DNA of 39,571 nt from a virus (Duplodnaviria; Caudoviricetes). Made by a program: the position numbers and the translations under genes. Positions 1,770 to 19,495 of the stretch are shown one piece after another (the first letter of the stretch is position 1; each line of letters begins with the position of its first letter). The DNA lies in IMG/VR virus record IMGVR_UViG_3300033559_000079, positions 1 through 39,571 of that record, one strand, 5' to 3'. A model generated the notes under the pieces. It was not told the origin of the DNA. It did not search any database and worked only from the letters and a program-made list of their open reading frames with translations.

Positions 1770-1928
1770 ATGGTTCATGGATTCTATTTTTCACCAAATG
1801 AGTTCCGCGTCGTTAACCCTAACAACGGTCATCTCATTAAAAAGTTCGAGTCAATGGAGGCGGCGCAAGCTGAGTATCCAGTTATAAAAGACACAGGGTC
1901 GCTCAAAGATTTTGAGACAACCCTGTGA
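1770..1928 (+). CDS. Small hypothetical protein, 52 aa (MVHGFYFSPNEFRVVNPNNGHLIKKFESMEAAQAEYPVIKDTGSLKDFETTL)
   Basis: Below the ORF-track cut-off. Strong AAGGAGG RBS just upstream; fills the gap before the DUF2829 gene. Confidence 0.7.
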   Translation: MVHGFYFSPNEFRVVNPNNGHLIKKFESMEAAQAEYPVIKDTGSLKDFETTL

Positions 1929-1971
1929 CCCCTTAGGAGGATTCCTAAAAATACATTAAAAGGAGATCGAT

Positions 1972-2220
1972 ATGTTCGATTTTAGTGATGCTCTGAAAGC
2001 TGCAAAAGAAGGCAAGTCAATTCGACGGTCTGGTTGGAATGGTCGTGGAATTTTCGTTAAGGCTCAGTTTCCTGATGAAAATTCAAAGATGAACTCTCCA
2101 TACCTGTACATCGATACGACTGGTCTTCAGAGCGAAAACTCTGCCGCTCCACGAGTATGTACTCCTTGGGTTCCGTCCCAAACAGATATTATGGCTGAAG
2201 ACTGGGAAGTTGTAGTCTAA
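1972..2220 (+). CDS. tad2: DUF2829 / Tad2-like anti-defence signalling-molecule sponge
   Basis: FSDALKAAKEGKSIRRSGWNG...PYLYI...PWVPSQTDIMAEDWEVV is the DUF2829 signature. AAGGAG RBS. Confidence 0.85.
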   Translation: MFDFSDALKAAKEGKSIRRSGWNGRGIFVKAQFPDENSKMNSPYLYIDTTGLQSENSAAPRVCTPWVPSQTDIMAEDWEVVV

Positions 2221-3620
2221 AAGATTTAGTGCTGATGAAGTATGCTCGGTTGTTTCGACTGAGTTCGATTTGAGTCTGCGAGAGTATATCTCAGGATTCC
2301 GCTTCTGGCTTCCGCTTACCGCGGCAGCAGTCGGTCCGGCCTTGAGCCGGCCCCAGACCCGCTGCCGCGGATAGCGACGCCAGAACTACATCCTGAGCTA
2401 TCCCAGTAGCACTTAGAGCACTGTCGTGTTGATGAAGTGACGAAGGAGTGCTTCGCTCTTTCTCCTGTTGAAGCTTGCGTAGTTTGCAAGCCTCTGGCTT
2501 TATGAGCTAGCGACGGCGGCACCAAGGTGCAGCCGTCGTAACTCACACGCCCAAGGCGTGCATGCCTCTCGAGCATGTAGAACACGTTGACGAGATTGCG
2601 TAGGTGTTTCGCCTTCGCCGTATTTTATTGATGAGTGACACAAACTCCGGGTACGTCACGTTCGCCATCGGTAAGTATCCGGGTCGCCCTACGGTCGACC
2701 GAGGATACTGACCATGGCGTACCAGACTCACCCGGAATTCGGGTCCCGATCATGTAGAACGTGAGACGCTGAAGAATTGTGCCGGTGTGTTTCGCACTGG
2801 TTCTTTCCAAGATGTCGAGACACACGCCTGCGACACTATCATCCCGCAGCCTGCTTTCTCCAGCTTTGCAGCTGGTGTGAATACCACCAAGCTTCCGGCT
2901 GGAGACTGCATCGCTGCGTTGATGACGTTGTCGCTAGCGAGCGTCCAAAGCAATTAGAGCGTCGCTGATGAAAGAATGCTTGTGTGACTCGCACAAGTTA
3001 TCTAATGGCTCCTCCCACAAAAGTCTGCGCTCTGCGCTGCACTGCGTTTGCTGGAGCTACGATTTTGCGCTCGTCGCCAGTCGAATTGACTTCTTGACTC
3101 TTCGAGTCTTCGAAGCAATCCGACCGATTTTCGAGCGTGTAGAGTGATGCGTCTTGATGAGAATGCGCGGGTGTCTCGCTCGCGCCATTTTCGATTTAGG
3201 TGGTTTGTGAGATCCAGATTTTTACCACGTCCTGATGTCCTTCTTTGAAGTACATCAGGACGATGCTAAACATCTGGATCCCCCAAGTCTGTATCGTTTA
3301 GAAGATGCTATTGATGAATGAGTGCAAGAGCGTTTCGCTCTTGTTCAAAATGAGTTGCTGATGAGGCAGTTCAGCACACCGGCCTCGGCGGATGCGGCCC
3401 ACTGTCAGGATCTCCCTGGATGGAATCCAGGGAGGGTCTCCCCTTGTTGGGTTCGACCAAATCCTGAAGTGCAGCCGCTACCGCCACGCCTCAGTGCTGC
3501 ACCACCCAGGACGCATTTAGAATAGCGCTGAAGTGGATACCGGTGCGTCTCGCGCCGGTGCTTTAATGTGATTGCGACTATCCAGACACCCCGGTCTGGA
3601 TATGTCAGTATCGTGTAGAG
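2221..3620 (+). ncRNA. Tandem array of 8 structured RNA-like units, unassigned family
   Basis: No credible ORF. Units start at about 2221, 2414, 2578, 2755, 2955, 3140, 3299 and 3518, with a final TAGA at 3616. Each has YTGANG(A), an 8-bp stem with a GNYTC loop and a long hairpin. G-T wobble pairs favour the + strand. Confidence 0.8.
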
Positions 3621-3623
3621 CGT

Positions 3624-3656
3624 AGGCGTCTGGGTAAAACCAGACGTCTTTTTTTT
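3624..3656 (+). terminator. Rho-independent terminator closing the array
   Basis: AGGCGTCTGG-gtaaaa-CCAGACGTCT followed by a T run. Confidence 0.85.
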
Positions 3657-3674
3657 ATCTATTATGGAGGATTT

Positions 3675-3923
3675 ATGAAGGTTGAGGTTGTTGTTTATTA
3701 TGCCGACTGGTGTGGCCCTTGCCACATTCACAGGAAAGCGCTCGAGGATTTCGACTATGTGCTTGAGGTGAATGTTAATGATGCTCAAGACGACGGAGTA
3801 TCAAGAGTTCCGTTTACAGTGTTGAGAGTTGATGATAGGGTTGTTAAGCGACATGAAGGCGCCATGACTACTGAGCAGTTTAAAGATTGGATGGGTGAGT
3901 ATGATCCGGAAAAGAGTTTGTAA
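3675..3923 (+). CDS. Thioredoxin
   Basis: YYADWCGPC active site and the cis-Pro motif GVSRVP. GGAGG RBS. Confidence 0.9.
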   Translation: MKVEVVVYYADWCGPCHIHRKALEDFDYVLEVNVNDAQDDGVSRVPFTVLRVDDRVVKRHEGAMTTEQFKDWMGEYDPEKSL

Positions 3924-4770
3924 GAAGTTTGGTGAGACAAGTCTGTCTGTCAAGCCTTATGGTGGGCATGTGATTAAGTTCGAGCCTATGAAGAGGATAA
4001 CTGTAAGAATTGAATTCAAGCCAGAGATCAAATTCTTTCAGGGTATCAGTATCGAAGGTATTGTATCTATTATTTCAGGGCTTGGGCTTGAGACAAGGTG
4101 GGGGAAGCCTAATGTTCTCTACGTGACAGCGTTTGAAAAGCGCTGGAAGGAATTGAACATGGCTTACTTCAACGGGCTTGGTGTCGATACCATTGTTAAA
4201 AGACTATTCGTCTATTACATGGTTGGGTGTATCAAAGGAATGGATCCTGTGTGCTCTCAGTTCGAATCGATAGGAGACCTGTCTCATGTGTGTAAATCAG
4301 TAAATGTTGCTTCGACTAAGTCCCTGAAAGGGTCAAAGTCGGAATCTATCTATCTTTACTTTACACATCCATCAGAAACTTCAATCAAGAGGCACATGGA
4401 AGGTATTCAGTATCAGCAGTTCTCAATTGGAGAGACGCTTCTCCCTGTGTCGTTGGTTGCGTTCGAAAGCGACCTTGACGGTGATATTGTAAGCACGGCT
4501 TCTCATGATGTGAATGCAGTTCAAAAATGGATTGAGTTCGAACGTGCGAGAGATATATTTAACACCTCGCTCGCCGAAATGGGCCTCGGTCATAACGCTT
4601 GTGAATCAAGCATAACTGTAACAATCATATCTTCAAGCGTAGAGGCTATTGTTAATACGGCTAAAAAGATGATCGATTCAGAAAACGATGAACTATTTCT
4701 ATTGGGTATCAAAATAAAGGAGGTTGTTAATGATTCGTCTGACAGAAGCGCAGATCGAGAAGAAGGTTGA
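3895..4770 (+). CDS. Hypothetical protein, 291 aa (possibly a degenerate ThyX-like fold)
   Basis: Long ORF overlapping both the thioredoxin gene and nrdD. Only weak ThyX-like motifs. Confidence 0.6.
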   Translation: MSMIRKRVCKKFGETSLSVKPYGGHVIKFEPMKRITVRIEFKPEIKFFQGISIEGIVSIISGLGLETRWGKPNVLYVTAFEKRWKELNMAYFNGLGVDTIVKRLFVYYMVGCIKGMDPVCSQFESIGDLSHVCKSVNVASTKSLKGSKSESIYLYFTHPSETSIKRHMEGIQYQQFSIGETLLPVSLVAFESDLDGDIVSTASHDVNAVQKWIEFERARDIFNTSLAEMGLGHNACESSITVTIISSSVEAIVNTAKKMIDSENDELFLLGIKIKEVVNDSSDRSADREEG

Positions 4771-6556
4771 GTTCTTTCACCATTACGTAGAAGCTGAGAA
4801 TGCAGCGACAGGAAGTACGCTCGATGCAAATGCAAACGTATCTTCCAAGAATATCGCCACATACTCTGCTGAGGACGGCAAGGGTGAAAAGGTTCAGCTC
4901 AACAGAGCTCTTATCTGCGAACGTCTTCGGACAATGTACGGTCAGGATGTGGCTAACCAGTACATCGAAGACCTTGAGTCTCATCTGATTTATACTCATG
5001 ACGAAACCTCTTTGATGCCTTACTGTGTAAGCATTTCAATGTACCCGTACCTGATTCACGGGCTAACTCAGCTCGGAGGAGAGTCGGTTGCTCCGAAGCA
5101 TCTTATCGCATTCTGCGGAAGCTTCACTAACTTGATTTTTGCAATCAGCAGTCAGTTCGCTGGAGCTGTTGCAAGTGTTGAGTTCCTTATGATTTTCGAC
5201 TACTTTGCCCGGAAAGATTACGGAGAAGACTATCTTGATAAAATGCCTAAGTTCGTTGACCAGATGCTTCAGCAGGTTGTATTCACTATGAACGAACCGG
5301 CTGGGGCACGCGGATTCCAGAGCTGCTTCTGGAACATCTCTACGTTCGATAAGGATTTCTTCGACGAGATGTTCGGTAAGTTTGTCTTCCCTGACGGCGG
5401 AACGCCTAATTGGGAGACTCTTGATAAGCTGCAGAAGTTCTACCACTCTTGGTTCAGAGAGAACCGCGAACGAGCTCTTCTTACATTCCCGGTTGTTACT
5501 CACAACTCGGTAACAACAGAAGCTGCTCCAAGCGCGACTGCTGAGTGGAAATCTCAGGACTGGTTTGATTTCGTTGCTGAAGAGTTCTCAAAAGGTAGTC
5601 AGTTCTTTATCTACACGTCCGACACTGTTGACTCTTTGTCATCGTGTTGTCGTTTACGAAATGCACTTACTACGAATGAATTCTCGTTCTCTCTCGGCGC
5701 CGGCGGTGTTATGACTGGATCGAAGAACGTGATCTCAATTAATGCAAACAGACTTACTCAGTCTGAGCATGAACTTGAAGATGTCGTTCGTCGTGTTCAT
5801 AAATACCAGACTGCTTTCGAAGCTCATTACCAGTACTTGTTCGAAAAGAACATGCTCCCTGTATACACGGCTGGGTTCGTAACTCTTGAAAAGCAGTATC
5901 TGACAATCGGTATCAATGGTCTCATGGAGTCTGCGGAATACCTTGGATACACTCCGGGTTACAATGAAGATTACATGGCTTACACAGCACAGTTCCTCGG
6001 AACAATTAAGAAGCTCAACGCCGAAGCGAAGGCTACGTATGGAGGGCTTTGGAATACTGAGCTTGTTCCTGCTGAAAGTCTCGGCGTGAAGAATGCGAAG
6101 TGGGACTCTGCTGACGGACTCTGGGTACCGCGCGAGTGTTACAACTCATATTTGTACCCTGTTGAAGATAGCGACATCGACGTGTTCGACAAGATGCGTA
6201 TGCACGGTGTTGAGAACATGAGAAACCTTGACGGTGGATCAGCGTTCCATGACAACCAAGATGAGCTTCTGAGCATTGATCAGTACAAGACGATTCTCAG
6301 ATCTCTTGCTCGGTTTGGGTGTAATTACTACGGGCATAACGTGCCGCGTACACAGTGTAAAGATTGTGGGTACATTAATCCGAACAATCGCAAGGTGTGT
6401 ACGAAGTGTGGGAGTGATCGAGTTCGGTATGCAACTCGCGTGATCGGATATCTCAAGTTTGTTGACAGCTTCAGCAGACCTCGGAAAGATGAACATGCGA
6501 AGCGCGTGTATCGACAGAAGCAGCCGAAGATAGTTCCACCGCTTACTTGCGGATAA
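4730..6556 (+). CDS. nrdD: Anaerobic (class III) ribonucleoside-triphosphate reductase
   Basis: IYTHDE, PYCVS, LTFPV, SSCCRL finger loop, TIGINGL, ELVPAESL, Zn site CKDC...CTKC and glycyl-radical motif TRVIGYL. Confidence 0.95.
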   Translation: MIRLTEAQIEKKVEFFHHYVEAENAATGSTLDANANVSSKNIATYSAEDGKGEKVQLNRALICERLRTMYGQDVANQYIEDLESHLIYTHDETSLMPYCVSISMYPYLIHGLTQLGGESVAPKHLIAFCGSFTNLIFAISSQFAGAVASVEFLMIFDYFARKDYGEDYLDKMPKFVDQMLQQVVFTMNEPAGARGFQSCFWNISTFDKDFFDEMFGKFVFPDGGTPNWETLDKLQKFYHSWFRENRERALLTFPVVTHNSVTTEAAPSATAEWKSQDWFDFVAEEFSKGSQFFIYTSDTVDSLSSCCRLRNALTTNEFSFSLGAGGVMTGSKNVISINANRLTQSEHELEDVVRRVHKYQTAFEAHYQYLFEKNMLPVYTAGFVTLEKQYLTIGINGLMESAEYLGYTPGYNEDYMAYTAQFLGTIKKLNAEAKATYGGLWNTELVPAESLGVKNAKWDSADGLWVPRECYNSYLYPVEDSDIDVFDKMRMHGVENMRNLDGGSAFHDNQDELLSIDQYKTILRSLARFGCNYYGHNVPRTQCKDCGYINPNNRKVCTKCGSDRVRYATRVIGYLKFVDSFSRPRKDEHAKRVYRQKQPKIVPPLTCG

Positions 6557-6623: not shown

Positions 6624-6965
6624 ATGATAGGAAAAACATTTCCATTTGGGTTGTTAGAGACGGCTGTTGTGACAAGAGAAGGAGTTCCTCAGAAGGGTGA
6701 TATCTTCATAAGCGGAAACCCACCAACTGCGTATGAAGCTTACGCCGACATGTCGCCGAGGGTTTGTTGGTTGGCGGAGAAGGTTGATAGGAAGAGATTC
6801 TCTCCTGAGGATATCAAGAATTGCAGGTGCTTGCCACAGTCTCCGAAAATTGACCTCCTTGAGGTTAGGCTTTCAGAGTTCATAACAAACAACTGCGAAG
6901 GAATGAACAAGGCGGAGGTAGTGACTTCCGTTTCAAATTTACTTAAAAAGATTGAGGCGTTATGA
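6624..6965 (+). CDS. Hypothetical protein
   Basis: AGGAGG RBS; ATGA overlap with the next gene. Confidence 0.7.
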   Translation: MIGKTFPFGLLETAVVTREGVPQKGDIFISGNPPTAYEAYADMSPRVCWLAEKVDRKRFSPEDIKNCRCLPQSPKIDLLEVRLSEFITNNCEGMNKAEVVTSVSNLLKKIEAL

Positions 6966-8248: not shown

Positions 8249-8428
8249 ATGGCCTCAAAAGAGATCGAGGATTTGATAAAAGTTCTTATGAATTCTGGCG
8301 CAAAAAGCGTCAGAGTGTTTGATTGTAAGTACGAAGACTTCTTTGAAGTAAAGAATGTTTTCGTGACAGAAGATACCATTGACCTTGTAATTGATATGGA
8401 GTATAAAAATGCCAGTAGTAATGTTTGA
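8249..8428 (+). CDS. Small hypothetical protein, 59 aa (MASKEIEDLIKVLMNSG...)
   Basis: Below the track cut-off; fills the gap in the co-directional gene run. Confidence 0.55.
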   Translation: MASKEIEDLIKVLMNSGAKSVRVFDCKYEDFFEVKNVFVTEDTIDLVIDMEYKNASSNV

Positions 8429-8978
8429 TATTGATGACACCCTCGTTAACAATACTGTTATCGAGAACGTTCTTAAAAAATTCGGGTGCGAAGACACTCG
8501 TATCCAGTTCGACTACTTCAGCATGGATATCCCTGCCGAAGCGAAGGATCTGATAACTGCGAAGTTCGTTTGCAATGACACGGTGAGCAGCTTTGAGCCT
8601 AACCCTGGAATGAAAGAGCTTGTTCAGAAGCTTCATGAAAAAGGGTTCAAGTTGATAAGTATTACTGCTCGACCCGAGTATGTGAGAACTGGAACTATGG
8701 TGATGATGCGCAAGCATTTCCCGCAGATCCAGAACGTGTTCTTTGCCGGCAGCTTCAACAAGATTGAGTTCATCAAGGCTCAAGGCGTTACTCATATCTT
8801 CGACGACTCTGCAAAGGTTATGTCTGACTGCCAGGGTCTCGGGTTGAAACTGTTCATGATCAGCAATGATATGACCAAGCACAACCACGAGTTCGTTTCC
8901 GCCGGTGGATTTGAAGCGATCGTTATTGATAAGATCGGCGATGCTGATGCGTTCATAGCGGAGCACTTCGAATGCTGA
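8409..8978 (+). CDS. HAD-superfamily phosphatase (5'(3')-deoxynucleotidase-like)
   Basis: Motif I FDIDDTL, motif II ITAR, motif III K and motif IV IFDD. Confidence 0.85.
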   Translation: MPVVMFDIDDTLVNNTVIENVLKKFGCEDTRIQFDYFSMDIPAEAKDLITAKFVCNDTVSSFEPNPGMKELVQKLHEKGFKLISITARPEYVRTGTMVMMRKHFPQIQNVFFAGSFNKIEFIKAQGVTHIFDDSAKVMSDCQGLGLKLFMISNDMTKHNHEFVSAGGFEAIVIDKIGDADAFIAEHFEC

Positions 8979-14251: not shown

Positions 14252-14791
14252 ATGAAGGCTATTTTATTCATACTCCTAATAGTTGCGCACCTTGAGTGCT
14301 CAAAGCCGATAGAGTACGTCCGAATCTCTGGCTCTATCTCGTCAAAAAAAGATGAGAAAAAAGACTTTGATTTCGACGAGTATGCAAGAAGAATATCTTC
14401 CCACGAAAGCTCTGACAACCCTACTGCCATTAGCCCGTCCGGGCTATACATGGGTAAGTATCAGATAGGGGAGCTTGCCCTGAAGGATATTGGTTGGAAA
14501 GGCGTAACAGTTCAAAAGTTCCGCAGAGACCCGTCGATATTTGATGAGCATGATCAGAGAAAAGCTCTTGAGATGATAGCGGCGAAGAACCGTGTTTATC
14601 TTTCTAAGTACATCATATCTTGCTCTGGCAAGGAGATGTACGGGATCAAGATAACTACTGCCGGGATGCTCGCCGCTGCTCATCACATAGGAGCAAGAAA
14701 AGTGAAAGACTTCCTTAGAACCGGTAAGGTTGCTAAGGATGGTAATGGGATCAAAATGACACTATTCCTTAGGAGGATGAATGACTTGTGA
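14252..14791 (+). CDS. Lysozyme-like / lytic transglycosylase-fold protein with an N-terminal signal or TM segment
   Basis: MKAILFILLIVAHLECS leader, catalytic HESS, GKYQIG and MLAAAHHIG. Confidence 0.75.
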   Translation: MKAILFILLIVAHLECSKPIEYVRISGSISSKKDEKKDFDFDEYARRISSHESSDNPTAISPSGLYMGKYQIGELALKDIGWKGVTVQKFRRDPSIFDEHDQRKALEMIAAKNRVYLSKYIISCSGKEMYGIKITTAGMLAAAHHIGARKVKDFLRTGKVAKDGNGIKMTLFLRRMNDL

Positions 14792-15131
14792 TTTTTGTGA
14801 TTGCGGGACGAATGAAGTTGTTACGATAGGCGAAGACTCTCACGCCTGTACCAACTGCTTCGCTGAAAAAATACTTCCGTTGATGACGCCAAGAGGTCAA
14901 GAGAGTTACTCGAAGCCAATTGTTGATGTAGCCGTGCTTTACGACGGAGGAGAATCTTGCAAGAAAAGGATCGATGATTTCGTTACTATATCTCCTGATT
15001 GCAGAATTAGGACGGATAGAACTAATCAGAGACTAACTGTTGGCGATGTCGTTTTCTTACATAACGACACAGTCATGGTTCTCCCTAAGATTGATTTCCT
15101 TAAGGAGTTCAAATGTCTGGATCGACTGTAA
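14781..15131 (+). CDS. Hypothetical protein with two CxxC pairs
   Basis: CDFC...CTNC; AGGAGG RBS. Confidence 0.6.
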   Translation: MTCDFCDCGTNEVVTIGEDSHACTNCFAEKILPLMTPRGQESYSKPIVDVAVLYDGGESCKKRIDDFVTISPDCRIRTDRTNQRLTVGDVVFLHNDTVMVLPKIDFLKEFKCLDRL

Positions 15132-17900: not shown

Positions 17901-18386
17901 ATGAGTGTTTTCTACACAGGTTCTAAGGTAACTTTCACAGAATATCCCGGTAAGACTACCCTGACATTTCAGATATCAGGGTGCCCTTTCCGGTGTGATG
18001 GTTGCCATAGTGCCGAACTTAGAGAGAAGGTTGGCAAAGAGCTGACTCCTGATGTTGTGTGGTCCGAAATAGCCAGAGCAAATGTCGTCGGTCAACTCGA
18101 CGCCGTTTGCTTCCTTGGCTGCGGAGGAGCTTACAAACATCTCGGAGAACTGTTCAAGGTTGTAAAAAAACATCGTCTTGAGACGGTTCTGTACACCGGG
18201 AACAGTCACAAGTTCTTAGAGTCAGCCCATGTTTCAAACTGGCGCAAGACAGGTCTTATCGATGCGATAAAGACTGGGCCTTGGGTTGAGAAGCTTGGGG
18301 GGCTTGACAGCCCTATAACCAACCAGAAATTTATCCATTTCAAACATGGAGATCTAACCCATAAATTTCGCAGGAGGAATTCGTGA
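17901..18386 (+). CDS. nrdG: Anaerobic RNR activating enzyme (radical SAM)
   Basis: EYPG..TL...ISGCPFRCDGCHS (CxxxCxxC), LYTG and KTGPW...LGGLDSPITNQK. Confidence 0.92.
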   Translation: MSVFYTGSKVTFTEYPGKTTLTFQISGCPFRCDGCHSAELREKVGKELTPDVVWSEIARANVVGQLDAVCFLGCGGAYKHLGELFKVVKKHRLETVLYTGNSHKFLESAHVSNWRKTGLIDAIKTGPWVEKLGGLDSPITNQKFIHFKHGDLTHKFRRRNS

Positions 18387-18748: not shown

Positions 18749-19095
18749 CTATCGACGATAAGATTTTCGAGCTTAACAAGCTTGGGTTCATGTATCCTGA
18801 GGTCGAGTTTAGTAACGAATGCCCTTCTAACAGGGTTCCTTGGGAATTTGAAACTCGTTACAAGCAGTATTGCATATTGTGGTTCAACCTAATCAGAGAG
18901 ATCTGGGAAGAGGTTGATGCGGAGTCGCTTGTGTCATCTGATGACATCAGGTCTGCAATGTTCAAGCGTCTGTATGTCGACGAGGTTATCAAGCAGCACG
19001 GAAGATGGTTCTTCGGTGACAAAACAAACAAAATCGCCTATGGCGAAAAGTTCTACAATTTTGTAAAGGGTGTGTATGAAAGTTCAATTGCTTAA
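18745..19095 (+). CDS. Hypothetical protein
   Basis: AAGGAG RBS; ATGA overlap. Confidence 0.6.
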
Positions 19096-19495
19096 AGGTT
19101 CTCCCGAGCCGAAGTATGCTACAAAAGGTTCCGCTGGTGCAGATATCAAATGTCTCAACGAAGTAATCCTCGCGCCAGGCCAGAGAGCTCTCGTTCCGAC
19201 CGGAATCTTCGTTGCCATTCCTGAAAACTACGAGATCCAAGTTCGACCTCGCAGTGGACTTGCTTTGAAGAAAGGGATCACAGTTCTCAATACCCCGGGA
19301 ACTATCGATTCTGACTACCGCGACCAGGTTGGAGTAGTTCTGATTAACCATAGCCAAGAGACTCAGACCCTCGAAGTCGGCGAGAGAATTGCTCAGCTTG
19401 TTCTGTGTAAGGTTGAAATTGCCGAGTACGAATATGTTGATGAGCTCGAAAGTACAGATCGCTCTGGCGGCTTCGGAAGCACCGGTACTCATTAA
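19076..19495 (+). CDS. dut: Trimeric dUTPase
   Basis: All five motifs are present: [26 protein letters not shown] and RSGGFGSTG. Confidence 0.96.

Follow-up and report, generated by a model that had tools for sequence, protein, structure and literature searches.

Arrays of stem-closed RNA modules with a shared UGA/UAGA junction and GNNUC hairpin in two uncultured phages

The T4 RNAs RNAC and RNAD are stable RNAs that lie beside phage tRNA clusters and are described as still having no known function (PMC9697503). Clusters of hammerhead ribozymes that cut phage polycistronic RNAs have been reported from prophage transcripts (PMC3088659), and the guide arrays described in a preprint have periods of 5, 18 or 60-79 nt, with 18 nt for TIGR arrays (bioRxiv 10.64898/2026.10.21.760802). 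CRISPR repeats read by Cas6 and the msr stems of retrons are comparable in another respect, as in both a short hairpin of fixed shape recurs along one transcript. Here, we describe an array in a stretch of 39,571 nucleotides (the window) from a virus of the Caudoviricetes (Duplodnaviria), namely IMG/VR virus record IMGVR_UViG_3300033559_000079, which is estimated to be 22% complete. The array consists of eight tandem stem-closed units (2227-3623, + strand, 99-222 nt each) between the gene for a Tad2-like (Thoeris anti-defence 2) protein and a thioredoxin gene, and a related uncultured phage carries an array of its own, with 11 units built alike. Compensatory change keeps the closing stem (P1) and an 8-bp hairpin (hairpin A) of these units on the + sense strand.

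From 5' to 3', each unit is composed of the 5' strand of P1, box 1, hairpin A (8 bp), a long variable arm, C-R-N-N-UAGA (with UAGA as box 2) and the 3' strand of P1. The junction strands common to the units read Y/UGA-N-G and C-R-N-N-UAGA/R, the slash marking the boundary with P1. In the window, the UGA-N-G box lies 10-12 nt 5' of each hairpin and a UAGA box is present in each following junction. The nucleotides immediately before UGA pair with those immediately after the UAGA that lies 99-222 nt downstream, through 6, 5, 5, 5, 7, 6, 6 and 4 contiguous pairs in units W1 to W8, the cross-unit mean being 1.7, and the true assignment of P1 partners was the single best of 40320 permutations. The window array was read as eight stem-closed units because the P1 pairing is unit-specific. 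Mean column identity in the junction alignment of the eight window units was 61%. The linkers between window units measure 6-12 nt; those at 2582-2587, 2959-2965, 3303-3311 and 3522-3528 (6-9 nt) serve two neighbouring P1 stems at once, and the 5' strand of P1 in W3 shares 4 nt with the 3' strand of P1 in W2.

A first-pass annotation of the window had described an 8-bp stem with a GNYTC pentaloop recurring along this region. All eight hairpins were recovered at the starts it gave (first positions of hairpin A, Table 1), with stems and loops as claimed, including the single T-T mismatch in the hairpin at 2598. The hairpin turned out to be no free-standing repeat but one arm of a stem-closed module of 99-239 nt, whose closing stem and two junction boxes the annotation had missed. 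We scanned the gap 2221-3674, which is free of open reading frames (ORFs), for GNYTC loops closed by an 8-bp stem, accepting G-T pairs and no more than one mismatch. It yielded eight hairpins, whereas 2000 dinucleotide shuffles of the region averaged 0.10 and never exceeded 2. The same scan of the whole window returned nine hairpins on the + strand and one on the - strand; the ninth + strand hairpin, at 1764, lies inside an ORF, contains one mismatch and was taken as a chance match. In the alignment of the eight units (A1), 63/64 hairpin cells were paired (98.4%), as opposed to 71.8% in shuffled alignments, none of which (0/500) reached the observed value, and 30-48% in slid controls. The stem had been called fully covarying, a wording that is too strong: six of its eight pairs change on both sides among the window units, but the outermost pair and the closing Y-G vary on one side only, and there is little variation in pairs 2 and 7 (C-G and G-C, respectively, each in 7/8). 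The loop consensus and the Y-G closing pair, described as fixed, are so in the window, but with the second phage included the loop relaxes from GNYUC to GNNUC, and 17/19 units have U.G or C-G as their closing pair. The claim that many pairs are G-U on the + strand was borne out, as the eight window stems hold 15 G.U pairs.

By its terminase, the window phage belongs to a large uncultured clade, whose contigs reach ~208 kb and in which one subgroup shares 69% identity with it and the rest at most 58%. The closest cultured terminase is that of Salmonella phage Arash (28.5%), in which no unit was found. We searched 28 related records with a covariance model (R1) of the junction module, on which the window units score 58-67 bits. 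The only record with a cluster was G002 (seven matches), a contig of 152.7 kb whose terminase is 69% identical; G013 and G014 gave one weak match each, at 19.7 bits. A model rebuilt from the window and G002 arrays (R2) found 10 units in G002 (25-58 bits) and no unit in 41 other related records, five complete genomes among them. The G002 array occupies G002:C1:122326-124360 on the minus strand and comprises 11 units with the anatomy seen in the window. P1 has at least 5 contiguous pairs in 11/11 units, box 1 reads UGA-N-K, hairpin A has eight pairs with 0-2 mismatches and a GNNUC loop, and box 2 is UAGA after C-R-A-W. Most G002 linkers are 10-15 nt long and show no P1 overlap. Like the window array, the G002 array starts 7-8 nt after a stop codon; it comes after genes for HU and RNase H and has a terminator past its last unit. 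A thioredoxin gene is embedded in it, with unit 3 ending at the ribosome-binding site of this gene and unit 4 starting 3 nt past its stop codon. Between the window and G002, tblastn identities were 39% for thioredoxin, 35% for ORF 6624-6965, 48% for 8391-8978, 71% for 14252-14791 and 35% for 14781-15131, and this syntenic gene set lies on the same side of both arrays. The Tad2-like ORF had no tblastn match in G002, and the pairing of Tad2 with the array is therefore not conserved. Unit number and the position of genes within the array differ between the two phages, and the core is kept. In both phages, the shortest unit is the one that immediately precedes thioredoxin (window 3525-3623; positions 3486-3586 (-) of locus L107), with 99 nt between the P1 ends, and in both it has a deviant box 1, UGAAGU in the window and UGAAUA in G002. 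W8 and its G002 counterpart may be the only orthologous pair of units.

All 19 whole units (eight from the window and 11 from G002) were aligned with MAFFT (alignment A5), and their ends align without gaps. Across P1 and hairpin A, 252/266 cells were paired (94.7%), versus 61.2% in shuffled alignments (0/500 as high) and 32-43% in slid controls, and double-sided changes occurred in 14/14 pairs. Counted from the junction outward, P1 pairs 1-5 were formed in 94/95 cells, each of pairs 1-4 being present in 19/19 units; pair 6 was formed in 14/19, and pairs 7-8 were at chance, from which a P1 length of 5-6 bp follows. The first and third pairs of P1 always have the pyrimidine on the 5' strand. RNAalifold, run on the alignment alone, recovered both P1 and hairpin A, and added two invariant pairs, a U-A pair joining the U of UGA to the final A of UAGA and a G-C pair that spans the loop. 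The two helices contain 40 G.U or U.G pairs (nine of them in P1) and no A.C or C.A pair in the 19 units; the folded strand is therefore the + sense strand of the window. Together with the covariation, and with the stem length and loop kept in the second phage, this count upholds the proposal that selection acts on a single-stranded + sense fold. Invariant letters (19/19) are UGA, UAGA, the C at -4 and the G, U and C of the loop, while the G at +4 and the R at -3 are found in 18/19. The conserved core amounts to ~17 letters gathered in the junction strands and a hairpin of fixed length, and the spacing from box 1 to the hairpin is 10-12 nt in 17/19 units.

The arms between hairpin A and box 2 are hypervariable in sequence and length (49-185 nt). 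Their folding is far more stable than that of shuffled sequences (mean z -4.8), with 17/19 below -3; the arm of W2 contains several hairpins and that of W6 one long hairpin. No shared motif was found in the terminal loops of the arms, and a search for antisense matches to either phage genome returned only chance matches of 11-18 nt. Three further helices near the junction were rejected, as they paired no better within than between units: one joining the purine-rich tail of box 1 to the U-rich stretch past hairpin A, one joining that stretch to UAGA, and one through the invariant C at -4. UYUR-UAGA pairing is possible in several window units and, on inspection by eye, in none of the G002 units. 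Loop position 3 could form a tertiary pair with the R at -3 in 16/19 units (8/8 in the window; nominal P 0.002-0.012), but this candidate fails correction for the ~3000 column pairs screened and is a hint only.

Table 1. Array units and flanking features in the window.
Feature	Coordinates	Strand	Length (nt)	P1 (5'/3' strand)	Box 1	Hairpin A	Box 2	Remarks
Tad2-like (Thoeris anti-defence 2) ORF	1972..2220	+						Pfam PF11195, E 6e-22
W1	2227..2423	+	197	UAGUGC/GCACUG	UGAUGAAG 2233	2244-2264	UAGA 2414-2417	
W2	2425..2586	+	162	CGUGU/ACACG	2430	2442-2462	2578-2581	
W3	2583..2763	+	181	CACGU/ACGUG	UGACGAG 2588	2598-2618	2755-2758	one U-U mismatch in hairpin A
W4	2765..2963	+	199	GACGC/GCGUC	UGAAGAA 2770	2781-2801	2955-2958	
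W5	2959..3150	+	192	GCGUCGC/GUGAUGC	2966	2978-2998	3140-3143	loop GACUC
W6	3149..3308	+	160	GCGUCU/AGAUGC	3155	3165-3185	3299-3302	
W7	3306..3527	+	222	UGCUAU/AUAGCG	3312	3324-3344	3518-3521	
W8	3525..3623	+	99	GCGC/GCGU	UGAAGU 3529	3539-3559	3616-3619	shortest unit; deviant box 1
Terminator-like hairpin and T run	3624..3657	+						10 pairs; predicted end of the array transcript
Thioredoxin ORF	3675..3923	+						directly past the terminator; homologue 39% identical inside the G002 array

The stop codon of the Tad2-like ORF lies 7 nt before P1 of W1, which places the array in the 3' untranslated region (UTR) of this gene. No promoter fits between the two, from which we infer that the array is co-transcribed with the Tad2-like gene. 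Past the terminator, the gene order is thioredoxin, a 291-aa ORF of unknown function and NrdD. The Tad2-like ORF itself comes after a 289-aa ORF (877-1746, +) in the phage early region, which encodes the catalytic domain of a type VI secretion system (T6SS) Tle1-like (DUF2235) hydrolase (Pfam E 1.8e-46) and had no match in the four related genomes compared. NrdD (4724-6556, +) and a small radical-SAM (NrdG-like) ORF (17901-18386, +) are 11 kb apart; with thioredoxin and a dUTPase (19070-19495) they make up a set for nucleotide metabolism, which points to a host that is anaerobic or facultative. DNA similarity found no relative of the window among 50,697 phage records, searches for related loci that used ORF 3895-4770 and NrdD as single proteins found none, and ORF 3895-4770 had no tblastn match among phages. 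Junction patterns were additionally scanned through a viral, a metagenome and a bacterial sequence collection. In viral_contigs, three scans returned 29, 84 and 25 loci, all single chance matches that lacked the stems and formed no array, apart from G002, the only record with several (84-locus scan). The 22 loci in metagenome_contigs were chance matches, the sole one with a hairpin lying inside an ORF of a G+C-rich contig, and so were the 12 loci in genome_contigs (best 21 bits); these patterns require exact box letters, and diverged relatives would escape them.

The units were compared with known RNA families and systems, and Pfam and PHROGs domain scans covered the scanned window ORFs and 203 of the 204 G002 ORFs of at least 70 aa. 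Rfam 15 gave no match at gathering score over the whole window. At E of up to 10, seven weak matches were listed in 1900-3800 and eight in the G002 array, none near the gathering score, and most of them were microRNA-precursor models placed on the long arm hairpins. ARAGORN detected no tRNA or transfer-messenger RNA (tmRNA) gene in the window or in G002. In G004, a complete related genome of 175 kb, it placed a tmRNA gene at 147732-148131 (-), beside tRNA-Pro and tRNA-Gln. Tandem Repeats Finder, applied to 2221-3674, found no direct-repeat array beyond a 15-nt run of a 7-mer repeated twice, and no Cas domain was present in the window or G002 scans. There was no RVT domain in the window, and the sole RVT_1 domain in G002 is ~51 kb from the array. 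With direct repeats, cas gene and adjacent reverse transcriptase all absent, the analogies to Cas6 repeats and retron msr stems drawn by the first-pass annotation fail as memberships; the array differs from both systems in that every stem sequence is unique and the hairpin is embedded in a larger module. Near-identical tandem repeats of ~34-45 nt beside an endoribonuclease toxin gene characterize the RNAs of type III toxin-antitoxin systems (ToxI-like), whereas the units here are 99-239 nt long and differ in sequence, and no such toxin domain was found in the scanned window ORFs. Y RNA-like RNAs associated with Ro60 and RtcB are alike in being stem-closed small RNAs, sometimes in tandem, in genomes with RtcB; no Rfam Y-RNA match and, in the window or G002 scans, no TROVE domain was found.

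Two further families share letters with the junction. The clustered prophage hammerheads are alike in that, as described, several small conserved-core RNAs occur per phage transcript, and their CUGANGA resembles box 1 (PMC3088659). Y-UGA-N-G-W is present in 19/19 units (G in 18, A in 15), but its Y is base-paired in P1, and 3-8 further letters separate it from hairpin A. The GAAA expected after the hairpin is not conserved, P1 is preceded by UAGA (after C-R-N-N) and not by a UH site, and the Rfam hammerhead models had no match at E of up to 10 in either array. Clustered hammerheads, as reported, flank genes, whereas the array units abut one another, except around the G002 thioredoxin (PMC3088659). 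Box C/D kink-turn RNAs also have a UGAUGA-type 5' box and a 3' box ending in GA, joined by a terminal stem. Box 1 is UGAUGA in 9/19 units and UGA in 19/19; box 2 is UAGA in 19/19 and never CUGA. Because covariation fixes the register of P1, one unpaired U precedes GA, not a three-nucleotide bulge. The array thus differs from box C/D RNAs in bulge size, in UAGA for CUGA, in that partner proteins were not found in the scans, and in its bacterial phage context, which is evident from peptidoglycan hydrolases, HU and a gene of sigma-like type. TIGR and VIPR arrays, as described, have 18-nt or 5-nt periods and occur with Tas or Vipr proteins (bioRxiv 10.64898/2026.10.21.760802); our units are 99-239 nt long, and no Nop-domain protein was present in the window or G002 scans. 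A guide role is unlikely because the variable part is self-paired. In a listing of terminator-like sequences, hairpin A appeared in units 2, 6 and 8 only, with the true terminator past the array, and cassettes of promoter and stem-loop do not explain the long-range covariation of P1. By sequence, structure model or defining features, the units fit no catalogued family.

The scans were also employed to look for proteins that might act on the modules. No Ro60/TROVE, L7Ae, Nop, Cas6 or RNase III domain was found in the scanned window ORFs or the 203/204 G002 ORFs, and Pfam detected no fibrillarin domain in the window or G002. Of the first-pass interpretation, the part on selection of the fold is supported, but for a protein that would read the hairpin no RNA-binding candidate came out of these scans. 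G002 encodes an RtcB RNA ligase (L109:7934-9034, -; Pfam E 3.9e-88). RtcB is also present in G008, which has no array (39% identity), and is absent from the array-less G004 and G015 and from the window; it was dropped as an array-linked gene on account of G008. The reverse transcriptase of G002 (L111:10345-11472, -; RVT_1 E 2e-18) lies at ~70.3-71.5 kb. ORF 14252-14791, the best conserved orphan shared by the two phages, was rejected as a partner, as its homologues carry the lysozyme-like SLT domain PF01464; a search for its relatives in viral_contigs added only G002. A 2065-aa ORF of G002 (53068-59265, +; L110:13068-19265) fuses RNA polymerase beta-like (Rpb2) and beta'-like (Rpb1) domains, and a sigma-70 region-3-like ORF is found at L114:14122-14814. 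Members of the clade apparently supply transcription machinery of their own.

We tentatively favour a reading, plausible if somewhat short of probable, in which a putative protein factor recognises the junction together with the hairpin loop and either cuts each module from a long transcript or holds it stable. One polycistronic transcript would carry both mRNA and modules, and the conserved junction and hairpin loop would provide the handle for the processing or binding factor. P1 would mark the ends of each released RNA, in the way that tRNAs punctuate phage and mitochondrial transcripts, and the variable arms would be the payload. As the array neighbours an anti-defence gene, within an early region that is variable, this payload may be directed at the host. 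Several points weigh against the favoured reading. The family was found in two genomes only, and neither the window, with ~22% of its genome, nor the 203/204 G002 ORFs offered a candidate binding or processing protein. At four of the seven window junctions the linkers are 6, 7, 9 and 7 nt long, less than the 10 nt needed for two 5-bp P1 strands; adjacent closing stems therefore compete there and cannot both be whole, which is at odds with simple excision as well as with simultaneous folding. The third arm of the predicted three-way junction comes from energy folds, and near the junction only P1 and hairpin A are supported. Among sequencing runs, none on record as RNA contains the stretch, and the only run that does is a DNA run, probably of the source sample.

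Foremost among the alternatives, although unlikely, is that the units are cis-acting parts of mRNAs, that is, structured 3'-UTR or intergenic blocks that shield neighbouring mRNAs (the Tad2 operon, thioredoxin) from exonucleases or separate their translation and decay. The starts of both arrays 7-8 nt past a stop codon, the terminators past their last units and the close fit of G002 units around thioredoxin, one ending right before its ribosome-binding site and the next starting 3 nt past its stop codon, would all suit such blocks. One or two hairpins suffice for protection, however, so that 1.4-2 kb of 8-11 conserved-core modules exceeds the need, and unit number and gene position in the array vary between the phages while the core is kept. 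Next in order, and rather unlikely, is a self-cleaving ribozyme of an undescribed class, with the junction as its catalytic core and cleavage near P1; it would yield unit-length RNAs with 5'-OH and cyclic-phosphate ends held by P1, which RtcB could join or circularise. The gathering of ~17 invariant or near-invariant letters in junction strands and a fixed-length hairpin is as in small ribozymes, the units are stem-closed and tandem, box 1 (Y-UGA-N-G-A) resembles the hammerhead CUGANGA, hammerhead clusters cutting phage polycistronic RNAs have been published (PMC3088659), and G002 encodes RtcB. Against this stand the lack of any Rfam ribozyme match at E of up to 10 in either array, the absence of the hammerhead GAAA after stem II and of the UH site next to stem I, and the Y before UGA, which is not free but pairs with the R after UAGA in P1; RtcB is also present in the array-less G008, and absent from the array-less G004 and G015 and from the window. 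More doubtful again is a new self-processing RNA class in which the UGA/UAGA junction with a docked GNNUC hairpin, as catalytic core, would cut the polycistronic transcript into stem-closed monomers, RtcB from phage or host could circularise these, and 8-11 nuclease-resistant RNAs would act on the host; the released hairpin RNAs could be, for example, decoys for RNA-sensing defences.

The remaining alternatives range from improbable to barely credible. Improbable is a set of RNA-only ligand binders (aptamers) forming a tandem sponge for a small molecule, such as an immune signalling nucleotide, beside the Tad2-like protein sponge. Invariant unpaired junction letters flanked by covarying helices are the usual build of riboswitch aptamers, and the window array directly follows the Tad2-like gene; in G002, however, the upstream genes are HU and RNase H and tblastn found no Tad2 match, no riboswitch family matched, known aptamers offer nothing comparable to the arms of 49-185 nt, and no ligand can be named. 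We consider very improbable a box C/D-like GA (kink-turn) motif bound by an L7Ae-type protein, as the scaffold of an RNA-protein particle that is possibly RNA-guided. UGAUGA is the commonest box 1, the GA of box 2 adjoins the closing stem so that tandem sheared G.A pairs can be drawn, and Rfam gave weak C/D-family matches (E 4.8 and 5.9). The P1 register fixed by covariation nevertheless leaves one bulged U instead of three, box 2 reads UAGA where CUGA would be expected, the scans of the window and G002 turned up none of the L7Ae, Nop and fibrillarin domains, the self-paired variable part offers no free guide, and the period of TIGR arrays is given as 18 nt (bioRxiv 10.64898/2026.10.21.760802). 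Barely credible is a DNA-level signal, be it single-stranded DNA hairpins (attC-like sites, hairpin promoters) or promoter and terminator cassettes. Box 1 with its preceding T reads TTGAYG, which is -35-like, and hairpin A with the U-rich stretch is listed as terminator-like in three units, but no -10 element lies at the right distance, the spacing between boxes ranges from 6 to 15 nt and no integrase was found nearby in the window ORF scans. P1 moreover pairs across 99-239 nt with nine G.U pairs, and a signal in duplex DNA would not keep such pairing.

If the favoured reading of modules recognised by a factor is true, large uncultured phages devote 1.4-2 kb to 8-11 structured RNAs built on one uncatalogued conserved core. 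The array is then a candidate for RNA-based host handling or for the organisation of phage transcripts, beyond tRNAs, because it lies in a variable early region, beside an anti-defence gene or around thioredoxin. The 19 members with strong covariation are enough for designing probing, cleavage and pull-down experiments.

The nearest analogue of the array is the phage tRNA cluster with its companion stable RNAs, in which head-to-tail stem-closed small RNAs likewise differ in their inner sequences. Such clusters, as described in the literature cited for RNAC and RNAD, lie among the early and middle genes of large phages and are co-transcribed with mRNAs, and host RNases excise the known cases. 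The array differs from them in that cloverleaf, T loop and CCA are absent and the core is instead a UGA/UAGA junction with an 8-bp GNNUC hairpin. The layout, tandem stem-closed RNAs, thus has analogues, whereas the module as a whole and its core are new.

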